DNA of 64,000 nucleotides from positions 8,182 through 72,181 of the forward strand of contig CALLPT010000177.1 of assembly GCA_938015575.1 (NCBI GenBank), read 5' to 3'. The position numbers were made by a program, and so were the translations under genes. This DNA is from an uncultured Acidimicrobiales bacterium. GTDB taxonomy: Bacteria; Actinomycetota; Acidimicrobiia; Acidimicrobiales; UBA10347. Shown one piece after another: positions 7,390 through 59,463 of this stretch; positions within the stretch are counted from its first letter, which is position 1; each line of letters begins with the position of its first letter. Below the pieces are notes generated by a model that was given only the letters and a program-made list of their open reading frames with translations, was not told the origin of the DNA and searched no databases.

Positions 7390-7393
7390 CACC

Positions 7394-16184: not shown

Positions 16185-16212
16185 GTTCGAATGTAGAGGT
16201 GGTTTGGTTTGG

Positions 16213-17593: not shown

Positions 17594-17606
17594 GGGGTGC
17601 TTCCTC

Positions 17607-17933: not shown

Positions 17934-18152
17934 GGAGCACCTCCCTCTGGACCTGCGGAGCAGGGCTGTGGACTTCACAGCAGGGTGTTTGCAACTGTTC
18001 AATTGCAACGCAGCACGATAGCGGCGCCCAATGGCTGAACCTCATGAGACCAGTCCTCATGAGACGAGTATCCCATGGGCCTATGACAGGCGCTCGCGTA
18101 CACGCTGAGCAGGTCAACGTGAATACAGAGTCGGGCCGTCGTGACAGACGGC

Positions 18153-27431: not shown

Positions 27432-28718
27432 TTAGTCGACCTCGGCGGCGACGACGAGCCGCGCCTTGCCCTCGGCCTTGGCCTGCATGAGCGCGCGATC
27501 GGCCCGATCGAGCAGGTCTGGACCGGCGCTGCGACGAGTGCCGACCACGATGCCCACGCTGGCGCCACCCGGCACCCGCACCCCATCGATGTCGTAGCTG
27601 CGGTTGAGGGCCTCGAGAACCCGGTCCGCGATGACCGGCGCCGAGTCGGGACGAATCCACCGGCACAGAACCGCGAACTCGTCTCCCCCCAGCCGGGCCA
27701 CCACATCACCTTTGCTCACCGCATGTCGAAGCCGTTCACCGACCAGTTGCAACACTCGGTCGCCCATGGCGTGACCCCAGAAGTCGTTGATGTCTTTGAA
27801 CCGATCGAGGTCGATGTACATGACCGCAACCGACTCGTTGTGCTGCACCGGAAACTCGTTCATGAACGCTCGACGATTGGCGAGACCCGTCAACGGATCC
27901 GTGTTCGCTCGGGCGGCGAGCGATGCCTGAGCGCGGCCCCGGGTCAAGGCCAGTGCGGCCAGATCGATGAGGGGGGCAACGACGACCGAAAGGAAGGCGA
28001 CTTCGGGCGGCGGGCCCCATCCCCAGAAGCCAAACGCACCGAGCATCTCACCCCCGCTCGTCACGGGAAACACATGGGCCCAGTCGCAGTTGCCGAGCGC
28101 AACCGATGTCCCAAGGGGTCCGAGCTCACCATCGCCAGGAACCAGATTGTCGACGACGTCAGCGCCGGTCCCCAGGTCGCCAATCGTGCGGCGTTCCCGC
28201 TCGGCGGTCCACCAAATGACCTGGGCGCCGTCGATGCCATTGAAGGTATGGCACGCATCGACGAGCACCCGCACCGCTGATTGATCATCGGCGGATTCGG
28301 CGATGGAGCGCAGTGCTTCGGTCGTTGCGAACCGAGTCGTGACATCGACCAGCGCGACGACGAAATACCAATCGCCGTCCGGTGTGCGTACCCAGCGTCC
28401 GGTCGCCTCGAACGGCACGCTGCGAGTCGGAGTCACCACACGAAGCGGGATGACGACATTGGTGAGACGGCTCGACTGGTCACCGTCGATCGCGTTGACG
28501 GCAAAGGTCGTGGCCACGCGATCCAGGTCGTCGGCGTGCACCAACTCAACCACGGAACGCCCAACCGGTGCGACTCCCACCGCGGCAGCCGACGGGCTCG
28601 CCCAGCGGACGATCATGTCGCTATCGAGGACGACGGTGATGACGCTCGACTCCCTGAGCAGCGAGGTGATCGCGAGATCACGCAGGGCATCCGGTTCCCG
28701 ATCACCACGCCGCGCCAC
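27432..28718 (-). CDS. diguanylate cyclase with PAS and GAF-like sensor region
   Basis: DPLTGLANRRAF, YIDLDRFKDINDFWGHAMGD, RLGGDEFAVL. The residue 3 positions before the conserved Asp upstream of GGDEF is S (SKGD), so there is no canonical RxxD I-site. Confidence 0.9.
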   Translation of the reverse strand: MARRGDREPDALRDLAITSLLRESSVITVVLDSDMIVRWASPSAAAVGVAPVGRSVVELVHADDLDRVATTFAVNAIDGDQSSRLTNVVIPLRVVTPTRSVPFEATGRWVRTPDGDWYFVVALVDVTTRFATTEALRSIAESADDQSAVRVLVDACHTFNGIDGAQVIWWTAERERRTIGDLGTGADVVDNLVPGDGELGPLGTSVALGNCDWAHVFPVTSGGEMLGAFGFWGWGPPPEVAFLSVVVAPLIDLAALALTRGRAQASLAARANTDPLTGLANRRAFMNEFPVQHNESVAVMYIDLDRFKDINDFWGHAMGDRVLQLVGERLRHAVSKGDVVARLGGDEFAVLCRWIRPDSAPVIADRVLEALNRSYDIDGVRVPGGASVGIVVGTRRSAGPDLLDRADRALMQAKAEGKARLVVAAEVD

Positions 28719-43584: not shown

Positions 43585-43700
43585 AATTGGGTACGACGCC
43601 CGTCGCGGCGGAAGGGGCCATTTGACCCGGGAAGACGGACTGGGTGACCTATATGGGCGACACTTTGGCACCGAGACGTGTCATGCAGTGAACTCACAGC

Positions 43701-44625: not shown

Positions 44626-45507
44626 TTAGTCGGGGCGAGTGCCCCAGGCGATCTCGACGAGCAAGCCGCAGTGGTCGCTGGCTTGCACGCCCGTCAACGG
44701 TTCGTGGGCAACCACCTTGGCGGACAGCACCCGTCCGGCATCGCCCGCTCGCAGGAACGGATCGCCGACGAATACGTAGTCGATGCGCTTGCGGTGCACA
44801 TTGAGCGAAGCGGCAAGCTCGTGGGTTCGCCAGTCCTGGGTCAACCCGGGACCGCCGTCGCCCGCGGTCGCCCAGGCGTCTTGCCAATACACGGTGCGTC
44901 CGCCGAGCTGGGTGTAGCCCTTGAGAAACCGGATCTCGTCGCTCTCCGGTTCGGCATTGAAGTCGCCAGTGAGAATCGCCGGCATGTGCTCGCGCGGATT
45001 CGGCGGGTCGACAAACGAATCCCGATCGCCACGTAGCTCGGTGACGTGATCCTGGATCGCTTGCACCTGGACCTGGCGATGCCGGCCATGGCTTGGTGCA
45101 GCCGCCAGGTGGGTCGTGAACAGATCAAGCCCCGCGGTCCGCGCGTGCAGAAGTTCCCACGGCATGCCGGTCAGGTAGAAGTCTTCCGGCTCCGGCGCCA
45201 ACGGCAGACGAAACGTCGTGTGTTCATCGATCGGCCAGCGACTCAAGATCGCCGACCCGAAGCGCATGTTCGGCTTCTCGCGTTCGGTCCACGCAACCGC
45301 ATGTCCACCAAAGACGAACTCGTAGTGATCCTGGGCATGGTCGGCCAGCCAGCGGGCAGTGTTGTCTTCGCCAATGTCCTGCCACACTTCTTGCAGACAG
45401 ATCACATCGGGACCGAGCTTGTCGATCCAGGCAACGATCTCGTGACGCCGTTCGGCCCAGCCCGCCTCGAAGAGTGACCCGATGTTCAACGTGAGCACGC
45501 GGAGCAC
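44626..45507 (-). CDS. endonuclease/exonuclease/phosphatase (EEP) family protein
   Basis: In-frame GTG 45507 gives VLRVLTLNIGS...DVICLQEV...ILTGDFN...SDHCGLLVEI. The listed start 45618 overlaps the divergent molybdoenzyme gene. Confidence 0.8.
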   Translation of the reverse strand: MLRVLTLNIGSLFEAGWAERRHEIVAWIDKLGPDVICLQEVWQDIGEDNTARWLADHAQDHYEFVFGGHAVAWTEREKPNMRFGSAILSRWPIDEHTTFRLPLAPEPEDFYLTGMPWELLHARTAGLDLFTTHLAAAPSHGRHRQVQVQAIQDHVTELRGDRDSFVDPPNPREHMPAILTGDFNAEPESDEIRFLKGYTQLGGRTVYWQDAWATAGDGGPGLTQDWRTHELAASLNVHRKRIDYVFVGDPFLRAGDAGRVLSAKVVAHEPLTGVQASDHCGLLVEIAWGTRPD

Positions 45508-45587
45508 CGTTGCAGCATATGGGACCTGGCCCGCAGGCGCAGGCGACCGCCCGTTGACGTCCGAGTCATCGGTTTCACTAGCTTGAG

Positions 45588-47867
45588 GTGATGACCGACA
45601 CCGCTGCCAACGACACAAACGAATGGCACAAGAGCGTCTGCATTCTGTGCTCAGCCAACTGTGGCGTCGAGTTGAAGCTCGACGGTCGCGAGATCGTGCG
45701 CGTCCGCGGCAACAAGGCGCACGTCGCCAGCGAGGGTTACACCTGCGAAAAAGCGCTGCGCCTGAACCACTATCAGAACGGCATGCGGCGCCTCACCTCG
45801 CCGATGCGTCGCGAGGCCGATGGCAGCTACACCGAGGTGGACTGGGACACCGCAATCACCGAGGTCGCCGCGGGGCTTCAGGCGATCGGGGCCGAACACG
45901 GCCAAGACAAGCTCATGTACTACGGCGGCGGTGGCCAGGGGAACCATCTCGTCGGCGTCTACGGATCCGGTCTTCGCCGCGCGCTCGGCATCAAGCATCG
46001 GTCCAATGCGCTCGCGCAGGAGAAGACGGGCGAGGCCTATGTCGAAGGACGGTTGACGGGCGCACACACCCACGGCGACTTCCACCACGCCGAAGTCTCG
46101 ATCTTCTTAGGTAAGAACCCCTGGCACAGCCACGGCTTCGATCAGGCCCGCCGGGTCCTCAAAGAAATCAACAACGACGACAACCGCTCCATGATCGTGA
46201 TCGACCCGCGTCGTTCCGAGACGGCTGACCTCGCCGACTATCACTTGGCGCTCAAGCCCGGGACCGACGCGTTCTGCATTGCGGCGATCCTGGCGACGTT
46301 GGTGCAAGAGGACCTGATCAAACGAGCCTGGTTGAAGGAGCACGCCAACGGCACCGAACGCATCCTCGAGGTGCTGGCCGACATCGACATCGCCGACTAC
46401 GCCGGCCGAGCCGGCCTGACCGAAGATGACGTCCGAGCCGCCGCGCGCCGCATCGGGCGAGCCCAAAGCGTGTCGATCTACGAAGACCTGGGCATCGAGA
46501 TGGCGCCCAACTCGACCCTGGTGTCGTATCTCCAACGACTGATCTGGATCCTCATGGGTTCGTTCAACATTCCGGGCGGCACGACCACGCATTCGGGCAT
46601 GGCGCCACTGTTCAACTACAAGGCGACCGGCAGCGAACCCGCGGCACCGATCACCGGGAACATGGTCATCAGCGGTCTCGTGGCGTGCAATGACATTCCC
46701 GACATGGTGCTGACCGATCACCCGGACCGGATCCGCGCCATGTTCATCGAAAGCGCGAATCCGGTGCATTCGCTCGCGGACAGCGCCAAGTTCCGCGAGG
46801 CGATGCGTCACCTTGAATTCTCCGTCGTGCTCGACGTCGCCATGACCGAGACGGCCCGCGAGGCCAGCTACGTGCTCCCTTGTTCGTCTCAATATGAAAA
46901 GGCCGAGGCAACGTTCTTTGGCGCGAGCTTTCCGGACAACCACTTCACCGTGCGCGCACCGATCATGGAGCCGCTCGAGGGCACGCTTCCCGAGAGCGAG
47001 ATCCACAGCCGACTCTTGCGCGAGATGGGCATGCTCGACGACGACCTGCTGGACACCTTGCGGGCCGCGGCCCAAGACGGACTCAAGGCCTACGGGGCTG
47101 CGCTGATGGAAGCGGGGGCCGCACATCCGAACCTGTTGGCCATTGCCCCGGTGATTCTGTACGAGACACTCGGCAAGTCTCTGCCCGACGGGCTCGCCGA
47201 CGCCGCTCCGCTCTGGTTCTCCTGCCAACAGCTCGCGTTGCGATACACCAGCGCGGTCAAGGCGGCGGGCTTCGACGACATCGCCGACGAGGACCTCGGC
47301 GACGCCGTCTTCGAAGCAGTGATCGCCGGCCGCGATGGCGTCACCGTGACCCGCCATACCTATGAACAGGGATGGGCGATGATGGGCACCGCCGATGGCA
47401 AGGTCAATGCCGACATTCCCGAACTCATCGACGATCTCGTCGCGCTGGCCGACAAGCCCGCCGACTATCGCAGCGATGAGTTCCCGTTCATCCTTTCTGC
47501 GGGCGAACGTCGAGCCTTCACCGCCAACACGATCATGCGCGACTCGAGCTGGCGCAAGAAGGACCCCGACGGCGCACTGCGACTCAGCCCCGCCGATGCC
47601 GCCGCGCTCGGGGTCGACAACGGAGACAAGATCCGCATCACCACCAAGGGTGGTTCGGCGGTTGCCCCTGTCGAGGTCAACGACTCGATGCAGGACGGCC
47701 ACATCTCGATCCCGAATGGGATGGGCTTGTACGCCGAGGCCGACGGTGACAGCGAGGTCGTGGGCGTGCCCCCCAACGAGCTGACAACGCTCGACTGGAA
47801 AGACGCCTATGCGGGCACCCCGTGGCACAAGCACGTGCCTGCCAAGCTGGAACCCGTCGCGTCGTAG
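45588..47867 (+). CDS. molybdopterin (bis-MGD) oxidoreductase, formate-dehydrogenase-like MopB family
   Basis: N-terminal 4Fe-4S motif CILCSANCGV...C(EKA), internal MopB blocks and a C-terminal MGD-binding barrel (IRITTKGGSAVAPVEVNDSMQDGHISIPNG). Confidence 0.85.
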   Translation: MMTDTAANDTNEWHKSVCILCSANCGVELKLDGREIVRVRGNKAHVASEGYTCEKALRLNHYQNGMRRLTSPMRREADGSYTEVDWDTAITEVAAGLQAIGAEHGQDKLMYYGGGGQGNHLVGVYGSGLRRALGIKHRSNALAQEKTGEAYVEGRLTGAHTHGDFHHAEVSIFLGKNPWHSHGFDQARRVLKEINNDDNRSMIVIDPRRSETADLADYHLALKPGTDAFCIAAILATLVQEDLIKRAWLKEHANGTERILEVLADIDIADYAGRAGLTEDDVRAAARRIGRAQSVSIYEDLGIEMAPNSTLVSYLQRLIWILMGSFNIPGGTTTHSGMAPLFNYKATGSEPAAPITGNMVISGLVACNDIPDMVLTDHPDRIRAMFIESANPVHSLADSAKFREAMRHLEFSVVLDVAMTETAREASYVLPCSSQYEKAEATFFGASFPDNHFTVRAPIMEPLEGTLPESEIHSRLLREMGMLDDDLLDTLRAAAQDGLKAYGAALMEAGAAHPNLLAIAPVILYETLGKSLPDGLADAAPLWFSCQQLALRYTSAVKAAGFDDIADEDLGDAVFEAVIAGRDGVTVTRHTYEQGWAMMGTADGKVNADIPELIDDLVALADKPADYRSDEFPFILSAGERRAFTANTIMRDSSWRKKDPDGALRLSPADAAALGVDNGDKIRITTKGGSAVAPVEVNDSMQDGHISIPNGMGLYAEADGDSEVVGVPPNELTTLDWKDAYAGTPWHKHVPAKLEPVAS

Positions 47868-47981: not shown

Positions 47982-50900
47982 ATGATCCGCCGGTTGCTCG
48001 CGCTCGTGCTTATCGCGGCGCTGCTTCCGTTGTTCATCGCCCGCCCGGCCCACGCGCAACTCCCGAACGGCGTCGTGATCAGCGAGATCCACTACCACCC
48101 TCAGGCGGTCGGCGACGCATTTCCCGACTACGACGACCGCGAGGACACCGAGTTCATCGAGGTCGTGAACCTTGGCGCCAGCGCCGCCTCGGTTGGCGGC
48201 TGGTGTCTCAGCGATGCGATCGACTTCTGTTTCCCGGCCGGAACAAGCCTCGCCCCTCAGGACCCCTTCGTCGTCGCCCGCGACGCGGCCATCTTCGAAG
48301 CTGCCTATGGAACAGCGCCCGACGGTGTGTACGGAGGCCGGCTTTCCAACAGTGGTGAGTCGGTACGTCTGGTCGATGGGGCGCTCAGCACCGTCACCCA
48401 GGTCATCTGGCAGACAACGAACCCGTGGCCGGTGACGCCCGACGGCGATGGGCCAAGCCTGGAACTGATCTCGGTTGGCGGCCAGAACACGAGCCCGGCG
48501 AACTGGGCCGCGTCGTCAGTTCTCAACGGCACGCCTGGCACGATCCCGAGCTTGTCGGGCCAGTCACCGCCGTTGGTGGTCTCTCACACCGCGCCTTCTC
48601 CGGCGGTTGCCGGATCGCCGATTTCACTCACCGCAACCGCGATCAACGCGTCGTCGGTCGCCGTCATCTACGACGTCGACTTTGGCGCGAACACCACCAT
48701 TGCCATGACCCAGAACGGCGGCCAATGGCAGGTGCAGCTTCCGGCGATCAGCACCGGTGAGCTCTTGCGGTTCCGCTTCGAGGCAACCGGACCGGGTGGC
48801 ACCACCACAAGCCCGCGCGTCGATGATTCGATCACCTGGTGGGCAACCGCCGTCCCGACCAACCCAGTGTCGAGCGTGCCGACCCTTGATGTGCACATCG
48901 CCGACAGCGACTGGAACGACATCGAGGACCGGACCTGCGGATGCATGGCCGTCGTGGTCCACGACGGCCGGGTCTGGACCGATGTCGAAATGCGACGCGC
49001 TGGCTACACCAGCATCAACAACGCCAAAGGGCACTACCGACTCGACTTCCCTGACGGGCATCCGTTCGTGGCATCGTGGCTCGTCGGTTCTTCTGACGAG
49101 CTGACCCTCGACATGGGCTGGCCCAACATCGGCATCATCCGTGAACAGCTCAGCTGGAACTTCATGGTCGATCTCGGGTTCCCACAGATCCAGAACCAGC
49201 ACGTGCGCATGAGCCGCAACGGCAGCTTCCACGGCCTGTACCTGCTGCGCGACGAACAAGACGGCGACTGGCGAGAGCGCAACGGGTTCGACAACGGCGC
49301 CTTTTACAAGTTCGAAAACGGTTTCGACAGCGCCGGTTGGGCAGGCGGCTGGGAGAAGAAAGAAGCACTCGACCAACCCGACACCGACCTCTCGACGTTC
49401 CGAACATGCCTGGACGAACGAGGTACGGCGCTGCGGAGCTGCCTGCTCGACCAGGCCGACGTGCCCCAGCTCGTGCACGAGTTGGCTTCGATGATGGTGA
49501 TTCGCCAGATCGATCAGCGAGAGTTCAACTGGTTCCTGTGGCGTAACGACAGCCAGGGCGGATTGTGGCGCTTGCTCCCCGAGGACCTGGACCGCACCTG
49601 GGGTAGTACACCCACCAACCCGGGTACCGATTCGTACCGCGTCTACGAGCGGTGCATGGGGCTCGACAACACGCCCGGCAACGAGGTCTGCCGCGGCGTG
49701 CTCTCGGTGCCCGAGTTCGAGGACATGTACAACCGGCGCATCCGCACACTCGTCGATGAGCACCTGAGCGACCCGAAATGGCCGGCCGAGGTTGCCGCGA
49801 CCGCGAGCTATATCACGGCCGACTGGAACGACGACGAAGACCGCTGGAACCGGACCTCGGCATCGATGGCAACGATCTCGTCTGAACTGCAGGGCTGGAT
49901 CTCGGACTATGCGGCTCACCTGCGCAGCGGCGGCCACGACGGCAAAGTGCCTGCGCAGCAGAGCGCAACACCGTCGATCAATGTGGTCGAGTTGCGCGCC
50001 GACCAGGGCGACGGCGTCACCTGGTTGCTCCTTCAGAACCCGTCGACGACCGAGTCGGTCGATGTCTCGGGCTGGGAATTCAACGGGCTCGCCACGATCA
50101 CCAACGGTGCCGTCATCCTTCCCGGCGCCACGATTGCGGTCACGAACAACATCGATGCGTTCCTGGTCGAGAACCCCGGCTTTACCGGCGTACGCGCGCA
50201 GCTCGATGGCACAGTTGCGGGCGAAACCCAGCTGCTGCGCCGCGACGGTTCCCTGGTCACCAGCCTGGGCGATCCAGCCCCGAACCCGCTCGTGCTCAAC
50301 GAGTGGAATGCGGTGAGCTCATCGAACATCCTGGCCGTGGCCGATCCCGCTTTTGGGCCGGTTGCCGGCAACGGCGGTGACTGGTTCGAACTCGTCGTGG
50401 TCGAAGACCGACTCGACATCCGAGGCTGGAAGCTCGTTCTGTCCGACAACGACGGAGCCGGACCGGCGGTGCGCGACGAGTTCGTGTTTACCAACGCGAC
50501 GGAGTTGGCCGAGCTCGAAAGCGGTCTGATCATCACGGTCAGCGAGGACCGGCCCGACGATCTCGACTACTCCCCCGTCGACGGTGATTGGCACATCAAC
50601 TTCCAGGCCAATGGCCTTGATGCGGGACAGTTCTTCACCGCTACATCCCAAGAGAACTTCGACACGAACCACCACGACTGGCAGCTCGCGATCTACGACG
50701 CGGCCGGGCAGCTTGTCTTCGGACCTGCGGGCGAGGGCATCGGCGATCTCACCGGCGTCAACAGTGCTGAGATCGGCGAACTCGAAACCGACCCCGGTCT
50801 CGGGGTGAATCGTCTCGTGGATTATGGCGACGGCGACGGGTCGACCTATGGCCAGGCGAATGTCACTGCGGGAACTGCGCAGGATTTCAGCGCGATTGCC

Positions 50901-51149
50901 TGGCCGTACCGCCGCGGCGACGTCAATTGCGACGCCAACATGGACATCGTCGACGCGCTCTTGATCGCCCAGGTGACGGTCGGCAACCGAAGCGATGTAC
51001 CTCGATGCCCGATCGCCAATGTCATCACCGAGGCCCATACCGGGGTCGGCGACCTGAACTTCGACGGACGCACTGACATCGTCGATGCGCTTCTGATCTC
51101 ACAGTGCGCTGTGGGGATTCGGGCCGCCGGCTTCTGCCCAGAACCGTGA
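47982..51149 (+). CDS. secreted multidomain protein: lamin-tail domain (LTD), Ig-like region, CotH kinase-like domain, two further LTDs, C-terminal dockerin
   Basis: Signal peptide ...FIARPAHA. LTD: VVISEIHYHP...EFIEVVNLG...GGWCLSD. CotH-like: HYRLDFPDGHPF...HVRMSRNGSFHGLYLLRDEQDGDW. LTDs: VVELRADQG...WLLLQNPS...VSGWEF and LVLNEWNAV...GDWFELVV...GWKLVLSDND. Dockerin repeats: GDVNCDANMDIVDALLIAQ and GDLNFDGRTDIVDALLISQ. Confidence 0.8.
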   Translation: MIRRLLALVLIAALLPLFIARPAHAQLPNGVVISEIHYHPQAVGDAFPDYDDREDTEFIEVVNLGASAASVGGWCLSDAIDFCFPAGTSLAPQDPFVVARDAAIFEAAYGTAPDGVYGGRLSNSGESVRLVDGALSTVTQVIWQTTNPWPVTPDGDGPSLELISVGGQNTSPANWAASSVLNGTPGTIPSLSGQSPPLVVSHTAPSPAVAGSPISLTATAINASSVAVIYDVDFGANTTIAMTQNGGQWQVQLPAISTGELLRFRFEATGPGGTTTSPRVDDSITWWATAVPTNPVSSVPTLDVHIADSDWNDIEDRTCGCMAVVVHDGRVWTDVEMRRAGYTSINNAKGHYRLDFPDGHPFVASWLVGSSDELTLDMGWPNIGIIREQLSWNFMVDLGFPQIQNQHVRMSRNGSFHGLYLLRDEQDGDWRERNGFDNGAFYKFENGFDSAGWAGGWEKKEALDQPDTDLSTFRTCLDERGTALRSCLLDQADVPQLVHELASMMVIRQIDQREFNWFLWRNDSQGGLWRLLPEDLDRTWGSTPTNPGTDSYRVYERCMGLDNTPGNEVCRGVLSVPEFEDMYNRRIRTLVDEHLSDPKWPAEVAATASYITADWNDDEDRWNRTSASMATISSELQGWISDYAAHLRSGGHDGKVPAQQSATPSINVVELRADQGDGVTWLLLQNPSTTESVDVSGWEFNGLATITNGAVILPGATIAVTNNIDAFLVENPGFTGVRAQLDGTVAGETQLLRRDGSLVTSLGDPAPNPLVLNEWNAVSSSNILAVADPAFGPVAGNGGDWFELVVVEDRLDIRGWKLVLSDNDGAGPAVRDEFVFTNATELAELESGLIITVSEDRPDDLDYSPVDGDWHINFQANGLDAGQFFTATSQENFDTNHHDWQLAIYDAAGQLVFGPAGEGIGDLTGVNSAEIGELETDPGLGVNRLVDYGDGDGSTYGQANVTAGTAQDFSAIAWPYRRGDVNCDANMDIVDALLIAQVTVGNRSDVPRCPIANVITEAHTGVGDLNFDGRTDIVDALLISQCAVGIRAAGFCPEP

Positions 51150-51949
51150 GCGACAAAACCGCAATCCGGGCGCTCGTCGTCGACGACACGATCGTGAACC
51201 GGACCGTATTGGTCTCGCAATTGCAGCGCTTCGGAATCGAAGCGGCCACGTGCACCAATGGCGCCGAGGCACTCGAAGCCCTGCACGCGGCCCTGGATGA
51301 CCCCGCGCCCTTCGACCTGGTGCTGATGGATTGGCACATGCCCGAGGTCGATGGACTCGAAGCACTCGTTCGACATCGCACCTACGCATTCGAACTCGGC
51401 ATCGAACCGACGCCGATCGTGATGGTGACCGCCGACGCGAGTGACGATGCGCGCCAACGGTGCCTCGAAGCCGGTGCGGCAGATTTTTTGGCCAAGCCCG
51501 TGAGTCTCGCCACGTTGCGAAGCTCCCTTGTGGATGTGCTCGGCGAGCCGCGCATGGGTCCAGACCCAGCGGCAGAGGCCACCGCAGCAAAAGCCGACGT
51601 TTCCCTCGTCAATCGACAAGTCATCGACCAGATGATCGAAGACCTCGGCGGAACCGATGCGGTTGCATTGGTCATTGACGCGTTCATCACCGACGCCGAC
51701 GAACGACTCGAGGCCGTCACCGCCGGCCAAGCTGGCGGTGCCACGACCGAGGCGCAACGAGCAAGCCACACGCTCAAATCGACGGCGGCGCTGCTCGGTG
51801 CAAACGAACTGTCGAGTGCGGCCAGGCGTTTCGAATCCCAATTCGACCTGAATGAACGCCCAAGCGATGACGAGCTGGCGGCCTTTACGTCACTGTTCCG
51901 CTCAACGTTGGTTGAGCTCCGTGCGATGCGAGCGTCTTTCGCCAACTAG
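51146..51949 (+). CDS. response-regulator receiver fused to an HPt phosphotransfer domain (REC-HPt)
   Basis: GTG 51146 forms a GTGA overlap with the CotH-protein stop. REC: ALVVDD...LVLMDWHMPEVDG...MVTADAS...FLAKP. HPt: AQRASHTLKSTAALLGANEL. Confidence 0.85.
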   Translation: MSDKTAIRALVVDDTIVNRTVLVSQLQRFGIEAATCTNGAEALEALHAALDDPAPFDLVLMDWHMPEVDGLEALVRHRTYAFELGIEPTPIVMVTADASDDARQRCLEAGAADFLAKPVSLATLRSSLVDVLGEPRMGPDPAAEATAAKADVSLVNRQVIDQMIEDLGGTDAVALVIDAFITDADERLEAVTAGQAGGATTEAQRASHTLKSTAALLGANELSSAARRFESQFDLNERPSDDELAAFTSLFRSTLVELRAMRASFAN

Positions 51950-52076: not shown

Positions 52077-53288
52077 GTGAAATCAGCGTTTGAGACACCT
52101 CGGCGGGTCGGCGTCATCACCGCCTTTCCCCCCGGCCGGAACAGCCTGAACGAATTCGGCTTCCATCTCGTCAGCCATCTGGCTCAGAACGAGGACCTCG
52201 ATCGGGTCGTCGTCTTCGCCGACGAGACCGACCAAGGCGCTCCGATGCAGATCGAGGGCACCGAGTCGGTGGTCAGTTGGAAGTTCAACTCACTCACGAA
52301 TCCGATCCGCCTTTACCGGGCAATTCGTCGCGCCCGAGTCGACGCGGTGATCGTCAACCTGCAGTTCGCCACGTTCGGCGACACGAAGATCGCCGGCGGC
52401 CTCGGCCTGCTCGTGCCGATGCTGCTGGCTAAGACCGGGATCCCGACCGGCGTGATCCTCCACAACCTCGTCGAGAACGTGGACATGGAAGACGCCGGCT
52501 TTGCCGACAACAAGTGGATTGCCCGGCTGATGAACTTCGCCGGCGAGACCCTGACTCGCACGATCCTGCAGGCTGACTATGTGGCGTTGACCATCCCTCG
52601 CTATGTCGAGCTGTTGCAAGAGAAGTACGCAGCGACCAACGCGTTGTTGACGCCCCACGGCAGCTTCGAGGAAATCACCGAGCCCAAGTTCGGCATGCCC
52701 GACGGACCTCGCAAGATCCTTGCGTTCGGCAAATTTGGCACCTACAAGACAGTCGACGTGTTGGTCGACGCCTACCGGCAGCTGCTCGAGCGTGGCTACG
52801 ACGACGTCGAACTTGTCATTGCCGGTACCGACAGCCCGAACTCGCCCGGTTACCTCGCAGGGGTCCAAGAGAACTGCAAGGACCTCCCGAACGTCGTGTT
52901 CACCGGCTACGTCGAAGAAGAAGATGTCGCCGGCCTCTTCGAGTCGGCTGCCGTAACCGCCTTTCCGTACACGAGCACGACCGGCTCATCGGGCGTCCTC
53001 CACCAGGCCGGCTCCTATGGCCGCGCTGCGGTGCTGCCCGCCATCGGTGACTTTGCCGAGGTCATCGAAGAAGAAGGATTCGTCGGCCTGTACTTCGAGC
53101 CCGCCAATGCGACCAGCCTCGCCGACGCACTGGCAAAGATGCTCGACGACGACGTGCTCGTCACCGAGCATGGCCGCCGGAACTTCCTTGCGTCCACGGG
53201 TATCCCCATGTCCGAGGTCATCGACTGGCACCTGCTGCACCTGGGTGTGGCGATGACCAGTCGCATCCAAACCACCCAAGCGGGTTGA
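52077..53288 (+). CDS. glycosyltransferase, GT4 (GT-B, Glycos_transf_1) family
   Basis: RVGVITAFPP...SLNEFG at the N-terminus. The C-terminal half has FTGYVEEEDV...FESAAVTAFPYTSTTGSSGVLHQAGSYGRAAV (E-x7-E-like region). Confidence 0.8.
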   Translation: MKSAFETPRRVGVITAFPPGRNSLNEFGFHLVSHLAQNEDLDRVVVFADETDQGAPMQIEGTESVVSWKFNSLTNPIRLYRAIRRARVDAVIVNLQFATFGDTKIAGGLGLLVPMLLAKTGIPTGVILHNLVENVDMEDAGFADNKWIARLMNFAGETLTRTILQADYVALTIPRYVELLQEKYAATNALLTPHGSFEEITEPKFGMPDGPRKILAFGKFGTYKTVDVLVDAYRQLLERGYDDVELVIAGTDSPNSPGYLAGVQENCKDLPNVVFTGYVEEEDVAGLFESAAVTAFPYTSTTGSSGVLHQAGSYGRAAVLPAIGDFAEVIEEEGFVGLYFEPANATSLADALAKMLDDDVLVTEHGRRNFLASTGIPMSEVIDWHLLHLGVAMTSRIQTTQAG

Positions 53289-53292: not shown

Positions 53293-54609
53293 GTGAGCAA
53301 CGTGCAGACCCCGGTGTCAGCCGCAGGTGACGAACCGTCGTCGACCGCGGCGGACAACAAAGCTCTTGTCGCTGGCGGCTCCGTACTTGCCCTTGCCATG
53401 TTTGCCGCAAACGGCGGCAACTATCTGCTCAACGTCTTTCTTGGCCGCTGGCTCACGCCACCCGAGTTCGCCGATGCCAACTTGATGGTCACCCTCATGT
53501 TGCTGGTCACTGCCATCGCCGTGAGCCTGCAGCTCATTGCCGCGCGCTTCGCCGGCATCCACGCGGTCTCCGGCACACAGGCCGACACCCGGGCCATGGC
53601 CAGGAGCCTCGAACGTTGGGCCGCGGTCGGAGGTGTCGGCTTTGCCCTGCTCCTCGGCCTCGGTGCCCCAATGTGGGCCGATCTGTTCAACGTCGAGTCG
53701 GCATGGCCATTCATCATCCTGGGCCTCGGCATGCCCGCCTATCTGGTTCAAGCCGTCGGCCGAGGTGTGCTCCAGGGCCAGCTCCAGTTCCGAGCGCTGG
53801 CCGGCACCTTCGTCAAAGAGATGCTGGTCCGAGTGGTGTTGGGCATTGGCCTGGTCGCGATCGGGTTCGGCGTCGTCGGGGCGACAGCCGCACTGACCGC
53901 GTCGTTCATCGCAACCTGGCTCGCGGTGAAGATGGCGCTCGATTGGTCCGGCGACGACAAGGTCCGGGCCCCCATCAGCCGCGAAGTGCTCGCCTATGCC
54001 GGCCCGGTCGGTGTGCTCCTGCTCGGGCAGATCATCATCAACAACGGCGACGTGCTCATCTCGAAACAGGGCCTTGAGCCGACTGAAGCAGGCATCTACG
54101 CCGCGGTCGCGCTCGTCGGTCGAGCCGTGTTCTTCCTCTCCTGGTCGGTGGCAACAACGATCTTCCCTGCGGCAGCCCAACGAGACGAAGCGGGCGAAGA
54201 ATCGAATGGATTGCTCTATGCCGGCCTCGCCGCCGTCGCCGTGCTCGGCGTATGCGCCGTCATCGGGGCGCGCCTGCTTGGCGGCACCGTGCTCGGTCGA
54301 GTGTTTGGCGAGGAATACGCCGGGGTCTCGAACCAGCTCGCGTTGTATGCGCTCGCTACTGCCGTCTTTGCGATGGCAAACCTCATCGTCTCGCACTACC
54401 TGGCGCTCGGCCACCTGCGAGAGGCGCTCATCATGCTTGCGGGCGGCGCGGTGCAAACCACCCTGCTGCTGCTGGCCGATCGCACCATTGACGATCTCAT
54501 CCGAGCGCAGGTCATCGCGATGTTCATTCTGTTCGCCGCCATCTTCGCCAGCCATGGAGCACGCACGCTCCGTCTTGCCCCACTCGTTCGAGGAGCAGCA
54601 CCATCATGA
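53293..54609 (+). CDS. MOP/Wzx-like polysaccharide or lipid-linked oligosaccharide flippase
   Basis: 438 aa, about 12-14 TM helices, positioned between two glycosyltransferase genes. 4-nt gap and overlaps on both sides. Confidence 0.65.
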   Translation: MSNVQTPVSAAGDEPSSTAADNKALVAGGSVLALAMFAANGGNYLLNVFLGRWLTPPEFADANLMVTLMLLVTAIAVSLQLIAARFAGIHAVSGTQADTRAMARSLERWAAVGGVGFALLLGLGAPMWADLFNVESAWPFIILGLGMPAYLVQAVGRGVLQGQLQFRALAGTFVKEMLVRVVLGIGLVAIGFGVVGATAALTASFIATWLAVKMALDWSGDDKVRAPISREVLAYAGPVGVLLLGQIIINNGDVLISKQGLEPTEAGIYAAVALVGRAVFFLSWSVATTIFPAAAQRDEAGEESNGLLYAGLAAVAVLGVCAVIGARLLGGTVLGRVFGEEYAGVSNQLALYALATAVFAMANLIVSHYLALGHLREALIMLAGGAVQTTLLLLADRTIDDLIRAQVIAMFILFAAIFASHGARTLRLAPLVRGAAPS

Positions 54610-55433
54610 TCTCCAGCGATCTTCCCGCGTACCGCGCCTGGGCAGACACACCCCTCACGGAGAGGCCGAAGTACTCGGTTGTCATCCCGGCCTATAACGA
54701 GTCGGAACGCATCTTGCCGACGATCGGCGCCATTGCCGTACACATGAGTTCTCTCGGAGAACCATGGGAGCTCATCGTCGCCGATGACGGTTCGACCGAT
54801 GAGACCGTCGAGCTGCTGCAAGGCCTTGGGCTGGCAAATCTCAAGGTGCTCGTCGCCCAGCAGAACGGTGGCAAGGGCAGTGCTGTCCGCCGCGGCATGT
54901 TCGCCGCCGAAGGCGATGTCCTTCTCTTTGCCGATGCCGACCAAAGCACGCCCATTGAGCAGTTCGCCGATCTCCTCAGTGCGATCGAATCCGGCCACGA
55001 CGTCGCGATTGGATCCCGAGCGGCCGAAGGCGCCGAGGTCACCAACAAGTCTCTGGTCCGCAAGATCTTTAGCAAGGGCTTGAACTTGCTCGTTCGCTAT
55101 GGGTTCGGCGTGCCATTCGCAGACACCCAATGCGGCTTCAAGATGTTCACCGCCGAGGCAGCCGAGATGTTGTTCACGCACCAGATCGTCGACCAGTTCT
55201 CGTTCGACCTCGAGATCCTGTACCTCGCACAAAACCGATTCGATCTGACCGTGGCCGAGGTTCCGGTCGAATGGATCGATGCGCCGGGATCGACGGTCGA
55301 CGCGACCAAGGTCGCCGTCGAGTTCCTTCGAGACATGGCCCACATCAAGTGGAACGACCTGCGCGGCCGCTATGCCAGCGCAAACCACGAGTGGCCCAAG
55401 CCAGCGTCGAGCACTGCGGCGCTGGCCTCGTAA
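54606..55433 (+). CDS. glycosyltransferase family 2, polyprenyl/dolichyl-phosphate hexosyltransferase-like
   Basis: YSVVIPAYNESERI, IVADDGSTDET, NGGKGSAVRRGM, FADADQSTP (DxD), DTQCGFKMF. Confidence 0.85.
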   Translation: MISSDLPAYRAWADTPLTERPKYSVVIPAYNESERILPTIGAIAVHMSSLGEPWELIVADDGSTDETVELLQGLGLANLKVLVAQQNGGKGSAVRRGMFAAEGDVLLFADADQSTPIEQFADLLSAIESGHDVAIGSRAAEGAEVTNKSLVRKIFSKGLNLLVRYGFGVPFADTQCGFKMFTAEAAEMLFTHQIVDQFSFDLEILYLAQNRFDLTVAEVPVEWIDAPGSTVDATKVAVEFLRDMAHIKWNDLRGRYASANHEWPKPASSTAALAS

Positions 55434-55481: not shown

Positions 55482-55808
55482 ATGCGACTCGTAACCGAAG
55501 CACCCACAACCGAACAGCCAGCGCTGGTACTCGACGGTCGATTCGATGCATTCGAGACCGAAAAGTTCCGCGCCGCTTGTGACGAGCTACTGGCGCACGG
55601 CGCCAACAGCTTGTCGGTCGACCTGAGCGATGTCATCTTCATCGACTCATCAGGACTCGCCGAATTGGTCCGGGCGATGAAACACTGCCGCCAGAGCGGA
55701 GGCGAGCTCGTCATCGTCTCGCCGTCCGACCCGGTCCGGGTCATCTTCGAACTCACCCGCCTCGACGCAGCGTTCACGATTCAGGACGCAAGCGTCCAAG
55801 CATCCTGA
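55482..55808 (+). CDS. STAS-domain anti-sigma-factor-antagonist-like protein (copy 1)
   Basis: 108 aa. VIFIDSSGLAELV carries the conserved phosphorylatable Ser position (DSSGL). SD GAGGAA. Confidence 0.85.
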   Translation: MRLVTEAPTTEQPALVLDGRFDAFETEKFRAACDELLAHGANSLSVDLSDVIFIDSSGLAELVRAMKHCRQSGGELVIVSPSDPVRVIFELTRLDAAFTIQDASVQAS

Positions 55809-56962
55809 TGGCGGTATCGACCGAAGTCGGACGGCCCGGAGCGGCCGTCGACTCACTGACTTCAGCACTGATCGACGCGAACGACCGACTCCTCGGTCTG
55901 CTCGCCTTGATCACCGACGAAGCGCCCGGATCGCTGGACAACGACGTCCTGATCACGGCGATCGTCGATCGCGCTGCCCCGATTCTCAAACTCGACCGCG
56001 TGACGGTCAACGGGGCGGCCGATTACGAATGGGGCTCGGACGTCGACGATGCCAAGGGATCGTGGACCTCTACCCATGCCATCCCTGAGCAGGGCGACGT
56101 TGACATCACGTTCAAGCGCCGCGGGTCCCGGTTCAACACCGGCGACACCAAATTGCTCAGTGCCGTCGCCAAGCTGATGAGCAACGCGATCACGACCGCG
56201 CGGATGCACCGTGCGGCGATGGACCAGGCAATGATGGCAAAGGAGCATGCGACCGCAGCTCGTATCACCGCAGCCGCACTTCCGGATCCGGAGCGCATAC
56301 CGCAGATCGACGGGTTGAGCTGCTTCGCCAACTTGGTGCCAGCTCGCACAACCGGTGGTGACCTGTACGCGTGGCGCGAGATCGACGGCAAGCTGTGGTT
56401 CGCGCTGGGCGACGTTTCCGGCAAAGGCTTGCCAGCCGCGGTACAGATGTCGACGATTACGAGCGCTCTCGACGCCGGCTTCCGCCAGCACCACACCGAT
56501 GGCCCCGAAGAAGTCATCGCCGCAGTTGGGCGCTGGGTCCACCATCGACTCTCCGAGTCGGGCATGTTCGTGACGCTCGCCGTTGGCAGCTTCGATCCGC
56601 ACACACGGACCCTCTGCATTGCGAACAGCGGCCACAGCCCGATCGTGTATCGCCGCAACGCCAAGTGCAGACGCATCGACGCGACGGCACCTCCGGTCGG
56701 GGTAATCGAGGGCATCCCTACGATCGAGACCGTGATCCAGGTGGAACAGGACGATCTCTTGGTGCTCGCCACGGACGGCTTCACCGAACAGGACAATCTC
56801 GCCGGCGAGATGTACGGCGAAGATCGCTTCGATGACACGATCGCCCATGCGGTCGGCAGTGCACCCGAAGTAGGTACGTTCCTGCTGAACGAACTCGCCG
56901 CACACGGCATCGACTGCGAACAGTCCGACGACCGCACGCTCATGGTGCTGCACTTCTCATGA
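55808..56962 (+). CDS. PP2C-type (SpoIIE/RsbU-like) serine phosphatase with GAF-like N-terminal domain
   Basis: TGATG overlap with STAS-1. GGDLYAW...FALGDVSGKGLPAA...LVLATDGFTE...SDDRTLMVLHF. Confidence 0.85.
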   Translation: MAVSTEVGRPGAAVDSLTSALIDANDRLLGLLALITDEAPGSLDNDVLITAIVDRAAPILKLDRVTVNGAADYEWGSDVDDAKGSWTSTHAIPEQGDVDITFKRRGSRFNTGDTKLLSAVAKLMSNAITTARMHRAAMDQAMMAKEHATAARITAAALPDPERIPQIDGLSCFANLVPARTTGGDLYAWREIDGKLWFALGDVSGKGLPAAVQMSTITSALDAGFRQHHTDGPEEVIAAVGRWVHHRLSESGMFVTLAVGSFDPHTRTLCIANSGHSPIVYRRNAKCRRIDATAPPVGVIEGIPTIETVIQVEQDDLLVLATDGFTEQDNLAGEMYGEDRFDDTIAHAVGSAPEVGTFLLNELAAHGIDCEQSDDRTLMVLHFS

Positions 56963-57372
56963 TGACGACCGCGCTGCTCACGCTCAAGGCCGACTATGAG
57001 TCGATGCGCGCGATTGGGCCGTGGCTCGAGGAACAGGTGCAGGCGATCGGCGCCGATCACCTCGCCGGCCGGGTGAGCGAGTTCGAGCTCGCCGTGCACG
57101 AGCTGGCTGTGAACATCGTCGACCACGCCTTTGACGACGAGACCCGCGCCGGCGCGACCTTCGACATCACCATGCATTGCAACGACGACAAGGCCCTGGT
57201 TGTCAACTTCGTCGACCGCGGCATCGCGTACGACTCGGCGGACAAGCCCGTGGTCGGCGACGAGCCGACCATCCGTGGCTATGGCCTCTTCATCGTCGAA
57301 CAGCTCGCTACTTCCATCGACTACGCACGCCGCGACGACGCCAACTACTGGACGCTCGTCTTCGGTGGCTGA
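56959..57372 (+). CDS. RsbW/SpoIIAB-like anti-sigma serine kinase (HATPase_c_2)
   Basis: ATGA overlap with the phosphatase. ELAVHELAVNIVDHAF (N box), VDRGIAYD, GYGLFIVEQLATSIDY. Confidence 0.8.
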   Translation: MMTTALLTLKADYESMRAIGPWLEEQVQAIGADHLAGRVSEFELAVHELAVNIVDHAFDDETRAGATFDITMHCNDDKALVVNFVDRGIAYDSADKPVVGDEPTIRGYGLFIVEQLATSIDYARRDDANYWTLVFGG

Positions 57373-57427
57373 GCGAACCGTCTCGAAAACCCTCAAACCC
57401 CCGTCATTCCAACCGATAGGAGTCACT

Positions 57428-57766
57428 ATGAGCCTCCCAACGTCGTCCTTCGACATTCGAATCAACACGATCACGATCGATGGTCGCCTCGACGCAATGC
57501 GTGCAGTTGACCTGCGCGAGGAGATTGACGAGACGATCGAAAGCGGCGTTGTCCGTCTGATCGTCGACCTCAGCCGCGCGGACTTCGTCGACAGTGCCGG
57601 CCTTGCCGCGCTCGCCAAGGGGATGAAGGATTGCCGTGGTGCCGGGGGCGATCTTCGCGTCGTTGCAGCCCAGAACCCCGACGCAGCTCGCGTGTTCCAG
57701 CTCACCCGCTTCGACCAGGTGTTCCGCATGGCGGACTCGGCCGAGGATCTCGTCGCGACGTGGTAG
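57428..57766 (+). CDS. STAS-domain anti-sigma-factor-antagonist-like protein (copy 2)
   Basis: ATG 57428 is preceded by TAGGAGTCACT. DFVDSAGLAALAKG carries the conserved Ser (DSAGL). The listed longer ORF (57131) overlaps the kinase gene. Confidence 0.85.
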   Translation: MSLPTSSFDIRINTITIDGRLDAMRAVDLREEIDETIESGVVRLIVDLSRADFVDSAGLAALAKGMKDCRGAGGDLRVVAAQNPDAARVFQLTRFDQVFRMADSAEDLVATW

Positions 57767-58140
57767 TCCTGGTCGTCGACGACGATCCGGTCAGCCGGCT
57801 TGTCGCTGAACACATTTTGCGTAGCGGCGACCACACCGTTATCGGAGCCGAGAGCGCCGAAGAGGCTCGCGAGGTACTCGAGGCCAACGGTAACGACGTG
57901 CAGCTCATCGTGTGCGACTACAACATGCCCGGAGCATCGGGCCTCGACCTGCTCGAAGAGATCCATCGCGATGCGGTGGTGACCCCATGCCCGCCGTTCG
58001 TGCTGATCACCGGTGTGGGCGAAGAAGACGAGCTCGATGACGAACGAGCATCACAAGTGTCGGGCTACTTGACCAAGCCTGTGCAATCGGGCGAACTGAT
58101 CGCCTTGGCGAGCGAGCTCGCTGCCACTCCCGTCGACTGA
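57760..58140 (+). CDS. stand-alone response-regulator receiver domain protein
   Basis: GTG 57760 overlaps the STAS-2 3' end by 7 nt. VLVVDDD...LIVCDYNMPGASG...VLITG...YLTKP contains all the receiver signature residues. Confidence 0.8.
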   Translation: MVVLVVDDDPVSRLVAEHILRSGDHTVIGAESAEEAREVLEANGNDVQLIVCDYNMPGASGLDLLEEIHRDAVVTPCPPFVLITGVGEEDELDDERASQVSGYLTKPVQSGELIALASELAATPVD

Positions 58141-58154
58141 CCACACCGTCGGTG

Positions 58155-58194
58155 TTGCCACTGGCGGTTGCTTTTCCTGCTAATTGTACGTACA
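58155..58194 (+). promoter_or_regulatory. candidate promoter (TTGCCA - 17/18 nt - TGCTAAT) followed by palindrome TGTACGTACA
   Basis: AT-rich island between the REC and SulP genes. -35 at 58155-58160, -10 around 58178-58184, and a 10-bp perfect palindrome at 58185-58194. Confidence 0.4.
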
Positions 58195-58203: not shown

Positions 58204-59463
58204 ATGAACTTCGCCGCCCCTCCAACGCTCGGCGCTGACATGCAGGCGGGCGTGACGGTTGCTGCGCTACTGGTCCCTCAGGCCATTGCCTATGCGTTGC
58301 TCGCCGGGCTTCCCCCGCAGGTCGGCCTGGCCGCCGCAACCATCCCCCTTCTCGCCTACGCCGCGCTCGGAAGGTCTGCCCACCTAGCGGTCGGGCCCGT
58401 CGCCCTCGTGTCTCTGCTCACCGCTACTGGGCTGGCCGACAGCGGTGCCGAAGATCTCATCGCTGCGGCCGGCATGCTCGCCATCCTGGTCGCCGCGATC
58501 CACGGCGTCGTCGCCGTAGTTGGCCTCGGTCGCCTCGCCAATCAGATCGCACCGGGCGCAATGAGCGGGTTCACGAGCGCCGCAGCACTTCTGATCGGCT
58601 TCGCTCAGCTGGCCAACCTGACCGGAACTTCGCTCGACCGGGCGAGCACCGTGGGTGCTCACTTGACCAACATCCCCCAGGCGATCGCCGATGTCGACGG
58701 AGCCACCGCCGCACTCTCCATTGCTTCGATCGCCGCGCTCATCGCACTACGACGCACACGTCTTCCTGGAGCGCTCTTGCTGGTCTTGGTTGCGACGGGG
58801 CTCTCCGCGGTGCTCGGCTCCGAGCTTTGGGCCAGCGTCGGCGAGATCCCCCGAGCGCTACCGACGCCGCGCTGGTCGGGATTCGACCTGGCGCTCGCCA
58901 TCGACCTGGCGCCGACCGCGGTGATGATCACACTCATCGGCTCCCTCGAGTCGTTCGCCGTGATCGGACGCTATGCACGCCCTGGCGACGAACTCACACC
59001 CAACCGAGAGCTCGCCGCCCTCGGCGCAGCCAACCTGGCGGCGGGCCTCGTCGGCGGTTACCCGGTGACGGGTGGCCTCTCACGCACGGCCGTGAACGCC
59101 TCGGCCGGAGCCCAGACCCGACTCGCCGGGGCCATCACGGCCATCGGCGTGCTCGTGACTACTGCGTTCTTCACGCCGTTGCTTTCCTCGCTACCAAAGG
59201 CAGCCCTGGGCGCCATCATCGTCGTCGCCGTCGTCGGCATGATCGACATCGATGGCGGGGTGGCCCACTTGCGGGGCGCCACCTGGCTGCCGTTCGCCGT
59301 GAGCTTGCTCGCCACTGCCGTCTTCGGGGTCAAGGTCGGACTCGTCGCCATCGTGGTCGTATCCGTCGTCTGGAACCGCACTGCCCGGCGGGACCGCGCT
59401 GAGCGACCGGGCGACGATGACAGCTCGGCTCCTCTGTCATATCCAACACATACAAAGGCATAG
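58204..59463 (+). CDS. SulP-family anion transporter lacking the usual C-terminal STAS domain
   Basis: ATG 58204 gives 419 aa. GVTVAALLVPQAIAYALLAGLPPQVGL...LAVGPVALVSLL is the SulP signature. The ORF ends about 35 aa after the last TM helix. Confidence 0.85.
   Translation: MNFAAPPTLGADMQAGVTVAALLVPQAIAYALLAGLPPQVGLAAATIPLLAYAALGRSAHLAVGPVALVSLLTATGLADSGAEDLIAAAGMLAILVAAIHGVVAVVGLGRLANQIAPGAMSGFTSAAALLIGFAQLANLTGTSLDRASTVGAHLTNIPQAIADVDGATAALSIASIAALIALRRTRLPGALLLVLVATGLSAVLGSELWASVGEIPRALPTPRWSGFDLALAIDLAPTAVMITLIGSLESFAVIGRYARPGDELTPNRELAALGAANLAAGLVGGYPVTGGLSRTAVNASAGAQTRLAGAITAIGVLVTTAFFTPLLSSLPKAALGAIIVVAVVGMIDIDGGVAHLRGATWLPFAVSLLATAVFGVKVGLVAIVVVSVVWNRTARRDRAERPGDDDSSAPLSYPTHTKA

Follow-up and report, generated by a model that had tools for sequence, protein, structure and literature searches.

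Partner switches that lack a sigma factor and lie at polysaccharide loci have already been described (PMC8256260; PMC13555669). Here we compare them with five signalling genes found in a 64,000-nt stretch of DNA, hereafter the window, from an uncultured Acidimicrobiales bacterium (lineage UBA10347; contig CALLPT010000177.1 of assembly GCA_938015575.1, forward-strand positions 8,182 to 72,181). These genes encode a STAS protein (STAS1), a SpoIIE/RsbU-type serine phosphatase (PP2C), an RsbW-like serine kinase, a second STAS protein (STAS2) and a stand-alone receiver (REC). They follow three glycan genes coding for a GT4-family glycosyltransferase (GT1), a Wzx-like flippase and a polyprenyl-phosphate glycosyltransferase-like protein (GT2). 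Given these precedents, the module is less unusual than implied by an initial annotation made from the sequence alone. Our comparison suggests that the locus is an uncharacterised, disaggregated, two-STAS version of the Syp- and Hsb-type switches within a conserved actinobacterial glycan operon. We lean, with slight rather than strong confidence, towards the view that the neighbouring glycan pathway is gated after translation by a partner switch under phosphorelay control, the five signalling genes being the regulatory half of the operon. GT1, the flippase and GT2 would constitute the biosynthetic half, making and exporting a lipid-linked sugar or glycan.

In the syp locus of Vibrio fischeri, unphosphorylated SypA is the output of SypE, and the target of SypA is unidentified (PMC8256260). 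The input to this system is nitric oxide (NO) sensed by HnoX-HahK and relayed via SypF (PMC12369376). The HnoX-HahK/SypF-SypE-SypA pathway matches the logic that we propose for the window locus, in which an Hpt relay, preceded in complete relatives by an H-NOX protein and a sensor-less kinase, would feed a receiver that sets the balance between an RsbW-like kinase and an opposing PP2C phosphatase on Ser56 of a STAS protein (PMC8256260, PMC12369376, PMC4517449). Furthermore, both have a single-domain STAS protein, the output in syp and a candidate output here, no known sigma partner and a module encoded inside a glycan locus. In contrast to syp, the locus described here comprises two STAS paralogues, a phosphatase with a reduced GAF-like N-domain and a glycan cassette of three genes instead of 18. 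Its complete relatives carry an H-NOX gene and kinases in the same locus, and we detected no orthology with syp beyond the shared domains. SypE is a single polypeptide with the order kinase-REC-PP2C, whereas the corresponding functions are encoded here by separate genes.

The initial annotation had likened the module to the HptB-HsbR-HsbA route of Pseudomonas, a comparison that proved apt, as Hpt-containing proteins accompany the module in most relatives. In Pseudomonas aeruginosa, a PP2C and a kinase under receiver control take their input from an Hpt protein and act in turn on a STAS protein, and the partners of this STAS protein are not a sigma factor of the kinase. The order of the domains in HsbR, PP2C then kinase, is also the order of the genes in the window. 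However, HsbR fuses REC, PP2C and kinase, there is one STAS protein, and the outputs are FlgM and a diguanylate cyclase rather than a co-encoded glycan pathway. HsbA is also mentioned in an eLife article (PMC8457831).

In Anabaena PCC 7120, HenR (REC-PP2C) and the kinase Alr3423 act on All4160, a STAS-glycosyltransferase (PMC13555669; bioRxiv 10.64898/2026.04.08.717354). The HmpU/V/W proteins of Nostoc provide a further precedent (PMC8256260). The HenR/Alr3423/All4160 system resembles our proposal for the window in its kinase/phosphatase pair, its receiver input and the direct control of a polysaccharide enzyme via STAS phosphorylation. In Anabaena, STAS forms part of the enzyme's own polypeptide and the genes are scattered, whereas in the window STAS is free beside GT2 and the genes lie in one operon.

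The icfG cluster of Synechocystis PCC 6803 (Slr1856, Slr1859, IcfG/Slr1860, Slr1861) likewise combines a PP2C phosphatase, an RsbW-like kinase and two STAS proteins without a sigma factor. Unlike the window locus, it has no receiver, Hpt protein or adjacent glycan genes, and it is linked to carbon metabolism. One homologue is labelled 'Protein IcfG' by its source. In Rv1364c of Mycobacterium tuberculosis, also actinobacterial, the order sensor-PP2C-kinase-STAS mirrors the gene order PP2C-kinase-STAS2, but this protein is a single polypeptide with a PAS sensor and lacks a receiver, a second STAS and glycan genes. Rv1364c is reported to act in the SigF network. The RsbU/RsbV/RsbW-SigB and SpoIIE/SpoIIAA/SpoIIAB-SigF modules of Bacillus subtilis use the same three protein families and the same phosphoserine chemistry; in contrast, a co-encoded sigma factor held by the kinase was not found in the window, and none is adjacent in the related loci. 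Labels such as 'anti-sigma factor', 'anti-sigma antagonist' or 'RsbU' at such loci are no evidence of sigma regulation.

Linkage of the switch to the glycan genes

The five signalling genes had initially been taken for an operon of their own. We observed instead that they make up the 3' portion of a conserved unit of eight genes starting at GT1, in which GT1, the flippase, GT2, STAS1, PP2C, the kinase, STAS2 and REC follow one another in the same direction with junctions of -7 to +55 nt. A comparison of gene neighbourhoods, based on precomputed annotations and phmmer maps of related loci (designated L001, L002 and so on), revealed that this eight-gene block, or its visible parts, recurs. Full-length relatives of the phosphatase were found in metagenome-assembled genomes (MAGs) of Acidimicrobiales/Acidimicrobiia. 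In 14 of 16 distinct phosphatase-seeded lineages, the gene immediately preceding STAS1 is GT2, and this linkage holds down to 31-36% PP2C identity and for modules with a GC content ranging from 47% to 70%. GT1 orthologues scoring 580-800 bits are present in nearly all related loci, and the flippase is syntenic across them.

The reverse survey was a GT2-seeded metagenome scan analysed by phmmer, in which we counted as orthologues those of at least 53% identity whose downstream DNA could be seen. Each of the four GT2-seeded loci looked up individually, including those of the cultured Nakamurella sp. GG22 and of a MAG labelled Cryobacterium, carries STAS-PP2C-kinase-STAS-REC immediately downstream. 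With these four counted in, the module adjoins GT2 in 10 of 13 orthologue loci, and it is found beside none of 69 GT2 paralogues (36-45% identity). The order of the genes can vary: L103, L106 and L107 read GT2-GT1-STAS1-PP2C-STAS2-REC-flippase, the kinase being detected in L107 only, and in these loci the switch lies inside the glycan cassette. In L016, from a low-GC (47%) Acidimicrobiales MAG, GT2 alone stands beside STAS1, without adjoining GT1 or flippase. Because the linkage is reciprocal and tolerant of rearrangement, it argues that the switch serves the glycan genes, above all GT2. Furthermore, in L012 the flippase and GT2 are fused into a single protein of 848 aa (6997-9543, + strand), supporting the idea that these two work as a unit.

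GT2 is also far more conserved than the signalling genes, its best 120 homologues being 62-100% identical. Its orthologues are labelled 'dolichyl-phosphate beta-glucosyltransferase' in their source annotations. GT2 exceeds the cut-off of the Pfam family 2 glycosyltransferase model, whereas none of its best NCBIfam matches (ArnC, AglJ, PgfS and DPM-type) reaches the cut-off of the respective model.

The two STAS genes are distributed differently. STAS1 is lacking in precisely those loci that have no glycan genes, namely in L014 and L015, the sole actinobacterial variant without the glycosyltransferase cassette, in which a hybrid histidine kinase (HK), PP2C, the kinase, STAS2 and REC lie among unrelated metabolic genes. 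STAS2 is the most conserved signalling component and occurs in all actinobacterial variants, L014 and L015 included. PP2C and the kinase are fused in L092 and likewise in several database homologues; REC is never fused to either in the loci seen, and the window has three separate genes. The L016 locus has an inserted PIN-domain gene (11618-12028, + strand) that separates the kinase gene from STAS2.

The direct targets of free STAS outputs such as SypA have escaped identification for years. The present locus narrows the candidates to three co-inherited enzymes, mainly GT2, which stays beside STAS1 despite rearrangement. Since the locus occurs in cultured genera, the question of what the output STAS binds is directly testable. 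Phosphatase homologues are present in cultured Actinoplanes, Microbacterium, Cellulomonas, Agreia, Rathayibacter and Actinokineospora, and the gene context was verified for Nakamurella. A literature search for an actinobacterial GT2-switch locus found nothing.

Signalling components and proposed output

Profile searches for STAS, SpoIIE, HATPase_c_2, Response_reg and Hpt domains confirmed these five domains, as named in the initial annotation. The five signalling products all match Pfam models well over the curated cut-offs, and all five genes lie on the + strand (Table 1). Alignment of 14 orthologues of each STAS protein bore out the claim that both keep a phosphorylatable serine: Ser56 is invariant, within a DS[STA][GA]L motif in STAS1 (DSSGL in the window) and within an invariant DSAGL in STAS2. 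The two are paralogues with 38% identity, and the STAS profile matches TM1442, SpoIIAA, RsbV and RsfB in the PDB. The metal-binding residues D185, D202, D323, D374 and D375 of PP2C are invariant in 51 homologues, and REC keeps D7-D9, D53, T84 and K106 in its orthologues. In the kinase, the N box (E48, N52, H56), the G1 box (D86, G88) and the G2 box (G107-Y-G109) are invariant in the aligned orthologues.

The phosphatase had been credited with a GAF-like sensor. The AlphaFold2 model of PP2C (pLDDT 88.7) predicts a small alpha-alpha-beta4 N-domain followed by a long helix and the PP2C fold, and a profile alignment of this N-domain with GAF-SpoIIE relatives (hhalign) is colinear throughout, with large deletions. 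However, no Pfam GAF model matches residues 1-190. For these reasons, 'reduced GAF-like' seems an accurate description of the predicted domain.

The initial annotation had reported no sigma factor between 45 kb and the right edge of the window, and our results agree from 43.7 kb on. Furthermore, no Sigma70 domain was found by Pfam among GC3-selected open reading frames (ORFs) of at least 100 aa outside the module region of the window. We then ran hidden Markov models (HMMs) of extracytoplasmic function (ECF) and group-3 sigma factors, without filters, over 476 kb from 29 module-bearing loci. These models replaced an earlier screen seeded with E. coli FliA, RpoS and RpoE, which had missed a Pfam-annotated ECF sigma factor in L094. 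No group-3 sigma factor was detected within 7-10 kb of the module in these loci by a model built from two seeds only, E. coli FliA and RpoS. ECF sigma factors occur within 10 kb in two lineages only, about 2.5 kb downstream and behind unrelated genes in L010/L094, and about 5.6 kb downstream on the opposite strand in L012; they are neither adjacent to the module nor consistently placed. The 11 loci with independent Pfam annotation gave the same result. Thus, the orthologous operons had no adjacent sigma factor in any related locus examined, and the description of the module as devoid of a sigma factor in cis stands.

The main rival reading is a classical anti-sigma module acting in trans, with the kinase holding a distal SigB/SigF-type sigma factor and the STAS proteins serving as ordinary antagonists; the sigma factor would then direct transcription of the glycan operon or of a set of stress genes. 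Orphan RsbW/RsbV paralogues with distal sigma factors as their targets are numerous in actinobacteria, for example Streptomyces OsaC (SigB) and the mycobacterial SigF regulators. In the PDB, the kinase profile finds Rv1364c (its RsbW domain, the closest match, E 1.4e-6), RsbW and SpoIIAB, in a search that succeeded with the profile alone, since the single sequence gave no match; the STAS matches listed above (SpoIIAA, RsbV, RsfB) point the same way, and about 64 kb of the genome is visible. Conversely, the kinase scores only 21.6 with the NCBIfam RsbW equivalog models against a cut-off of 145, which is why we regard its predicted product as RsbW-like and not as an RsbW orthologue. Together with the lack of group-3 sigma factors near the 29 modules or among the scanned window ORFs, and with a tight, reciprocal GT2 linkage that a distal sigma factor does not need, this leaves regulation through a distal sigma factor rather unlikely.

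We judge it improbable that STAS has second-messenger or other signalling proteins as its targets, in the manner of HsbA-HsbD or SiaC-SiaD with diguanylate cyclases, and affects the glycan only indirectly via cyclic di-GMP. SiaA is the best match of the PP2C profile in the PDB, ahead of Rv1364c, SpoIIE and RssB as the other nearest structures, and the window encodes two GGDEF proteins (27432-28718 and 41953-43671, both on the - strand, the second with PAS domains). L007 also has a weak GGDEF gene 6 kb downstream. However, the GGDEF pair of the window lies 12-28 kb upstream on the opposite strand, its nearest member 12 kb off, and across the related loci neither GGDEF nor EAL genes are regular neighbours of the module.

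On the input side, the REC-Hpt gene noted 3.5 kb upstream of the module was confirmed. Its product keeps the acceptor Asp, Thr and Lys and the Hpt His (HTLKS). Hpt-bearing proteins with a conserved His flank the module in most loci. In L006, L010/L094, L011, L013, L093, L096 (cut at the contig end) and L098, a hybrid HK with the domains HisKA-HATPase-REC-Hpt and no sensor domain, an H-NOX gene and a second sensor-less HK lie just upstream of GT1. Six H-NOX proteins that we aligned keep the YxSxR haem-binding motif and the conserved His. These loci place H-NOX signalling, studied mostly in Proteobacteria, beside a partner switch in uncultured marine Acidimicrobiia. In the window there is no H-NOX gene beside a sensor-less HK; no HK was found in 43.7-64 kb, and one OmpR-type two-component pair lies at 6.5-8.8 kb. 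The statement that the locus has no HK therefore holds for this lineage but not as a general trait, as relatives carry HKs there. At 157 bits, the window REC-Hpt aligns with the C-terminal half of the hybrid HK of L006, and from this match we take it to be the putative remnant of the relatives' hybrid HK, the loss of the kinase being a lineage-specific reduction.

Such losses raise the question of whether the module of this genome is itself a decaying remnant deprived of input, having lost H-NOX and both kinases. The window retains REC-Hpt only and L003 an Hpt domain only, compared with the hybrid HK, H-NOX and HK of relatives. However, all eight genes are intact, none of the catalytic or acceptor residues has been lost, and the close relatives L001, L002 and L008 show sequence conservation. 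Moreover, REC-Hpt retains both its Asp and its His and can therefore draw on a kinase encoded outside the locus. Decay is consequently very improbable.

From the domains, residues, gene order and conservation observed, we infer the protein-protein contacts, the direction of regulation and the nature of the sugar in the mechanism that we favour, namely post-translational gating of the glycan pathway. A His-Asp phosphorelay would pass phosphate via Hpt to Asp53 of the stand-alone receiver. The Hpt donor would be the orphan REC-Hpt protein in this genome, and in relatives the hybrid kinase acting with the H-NOX haem sensor and the second sensor-less kinase. The receiver would then tip the balance between PP2C and the RsbW-like kinase, which together would set the phosphorylation of Ser56 on both STAS paralogues. 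No sigma factor would serve as the output. Instead, STAS1 in its unphosphorylated state, as the most likely of the STAS forms, would bind GT2, the proposed main target, or the GT2-flippase machinery, and this binding would gate glycan synthesis after translation. STAS1 is chosen for this role as it always travels with the glycan genes, whereas STAS2, whose gene accompanies those of the kinase, phosphatase and receiver, would be the competing partner of the kinase.

Several observations weigh against this mechanism. L014 and L015 carry the module without any glycan gene, indicating that the coupling is not obligatory, and the GT2 orthologue loci L099, L100 and L108 are without the module. Synteny cannot separate post-translational from transcriptional control, and the closest solved relatives of the kinase (Rv1364c, RsbW, SpoIIAB) include genuine anti-sigma factors. 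The assignment of roles to STAS1 and STAS2 depends on essentially one informative lineage. Moreover, no STAS-GT2 fusion was found among the best 120 GT2 homologues. XssP, the Synechocystis homologue of All4160, is described as a priming glycosyltransferase (PMC8205485). This being another enzyme type, there is no Rosetta-stone precedent for STAS with GT2, and we dropped XssP-type STAS-glycosyltransferases from the comparison.

A more specific form of the gating mechanism can be formulated only tentatively, and taken as a whole we hold it doubtful. It states that across Actinomycetota a two-STAS switch directly gates the first lipid-linked step of surface glycosylation, with STAS1 as the enzyme-binding effector, STAS2 as the alternative partner of the kinase in the place of the textbook sigma factor, and NO or O2 sensed by H-NOX as the input in complete loci. 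The pathway would then consist of a polyprenyl-phosphate glucose synthase, the flippase and, in relatives, a putative GT-C transferase. The latter refers to a membrane protein of about 1086 aa whose N-terminus gives weak PMT_2 and PTPS_related matches (E 0.002-0.007), a resemblance that suggests a GT-C transferase, which could use the polyprenyl-phosphate sugar. Its gene belongs to a trio found upstream in many relatives (L007 1173-6258, L005, L006, L093, L098, L011, L013 and L105) and not in the window, together with those of an Ig-like (Invasin_D3) protein of about 418 aa and a membrane-anchored protein of about 190 aa.

Gene features and flanking regions

Table 1. Coordinates of the switch, glycan and neighbouring features in the window, with their supporting matches.
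Feature	Position	Strand	Size	Evidence
REC-Hpt phosphotransfer protein	51104..51949	+		Pfam Response_reg E 5.6e-23; Hpt E 2.8e-11
GT1, GT4-family (Glycos_transf_1) glycosyltransferase	52077..53288	+		Pfam Glyco_trans_1_4 E 6.5e-21
Wzx-like (MOP superfamily) lipid-linked glycan flippase	53293..54609	+		Pfam Polysacc_synt_3 E 2e-11
GT2, polyprenyl-phosphate glycosyltransferase-like	54606..55433	+		Pfam Glycos_transf_2 E 1.8e-27
STAS1	55482..55808	+	108 aa	Pfam STAS E 1.3e-17; TIGR00377 66 bits vs cut-off 53.45
PP2C, SpoIIE/RsbU-type Ser phosphatase	55808..56962	+	384 aa	Pfam SpoIIE E 4.5e-40, residues 193-383
RsbW/SpoIIAB-type Ser kinase, GHKL ATPase fold	56959..57372	+	137 aa	Pfam HATPase_c_2 (PF13581) E 9.3e-13
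STAS2	57428..57766	+	112 aa	Pfam STAS E 1.4e-15
REC, stand-alone receiver	57760..58140	+	126 aa	Pfam Response_reg E 1.3e-19
Terminator-like hairpin	58145..58178	+		Terminator scan; 10-bp stem, T-rich tail
SulP	58204..59463	+		Sulfate_transp core, no STAS domain

The signalling genes had been described as overlapping by 1-7 nt throughout. As read from the sequence, this is correct for three of the four junctions: STAS1/PP2C (TGATG, 1 nt), PP2C/kinase (ATGA, 4 nt) and STAS2/REC, where the GTG start of REC lies 7 nt within the 3' end of STAS2. In contrast, the kinase and STAS2 genes are separated by a 55-nt spacer (57373-57427), and a GGAG box precedes the ATG at 57428. Starting STAS2 at an alternative GTG in the same frame (57365) would create an overlap with the kinase gene, but this start was rejected because the N-termini of the orthologues all align at the Met; independent gene calls also give STAS2 as 112 aa.

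A 647-aa antisense ORF spanning four of the five genes (56023-57966, - strand) was rejected as a high-GC shadow ORF. It has an atypical GC content by codon position and no conservation in the orthologous loci, whose longest open stretch on the antisense strand ranges between 144 and 675 aa and follows GC content. The GC content of the window is 63-67%, and a promoter scan was uninformative for a high-GC actinobacterium.

The hairpin after REC probably marks the end of the operon. It is the sole intergenic terminator-like hairpin and sits before the SulP gene; since the number of terminator-like sites in the region is not above chance, it is suggestive by position only.

Downstream of REC lie the genes of a SulP core, two YeeE/YedE-type proteins, a luciferase-like oxidoreductase and a VWA/YfbK protein. 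Pfam and NCBIfam scans confirmed that SulP has no STAS domain, as initially noted. The segment 58204-60414 (+ strand), with SulP and two half-size YeeE/YedE (Sulf_transp / DUF6691) genes, resembles a small sulfur-uptake islet. The trio follows REC only in the closest lineage, made up of the window, L001, L002 and L008 (at least 86% PP2C identity). In L003 (78% PP2C identity), the luciferase-like gene and then the VWA gene come directly after REC, without SulP. As the trio is found neither in L003 nor in any of the more distant loci, comparison of the loci indicates that it is a lineage-specific insertion.

The initial annotation had proposed the glycan cassette, SulP or REC itself as outputs in cis. 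Synteny strongly favours the glycan cassette. A role for SulP would imply that a free STAS supplies in trans the domain lacking in this transporter and that the switch regulates anion uptake, and the STAS-less SulP gene directly after REC fits this idea. However, SulP and the YeeE/YedE genes are not conserved with the module and lie behind the terminator-like hairpin. We therefore rejected SulP as the output of the switch, a role that we consider extremely improbable.

Upstream of the module, the genes on the same strand encode, in order, a molybdopterin oxidoreductase, a CotH/LTD/CBM56/dockerin protein, REC-Hpt, GT1, the flippase and GT2. The GTG start of REC-Hpt overlaps the last 46 nt of the CotH gene (51104-51149), and its true start is possibly further downstream, as the receiver domain begins at about residue 22. 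The CotH-kinase protein (47982-51149, + strand) is a secreted-type protein of 1055 aa with Lamin-tail, CBM56 and dockerin domains. Counterparts that vary in position and strand are found at L003 2053-5250, L092 9077-12274 (- strand) and L093 19681-21173 (- strand).

Exo_endo_phos and DUF4012 genes are present in the window at 44626-45618 (- strand) and 10704-13157 (+ strand), respectively. Both also occur near the module of Nakamurella sp. GG22 (L095 11828-12832 and 16670-16915), where Exo_endo_phos comes directly after REC; this recurrence may be a coincidence or a loose association. Finally, the window carries a dnaB, rplI, ssb, rpsF cluster (14512-18008, - strand), which is typical of the origin-proximal region of actinobacterial chromosomes.

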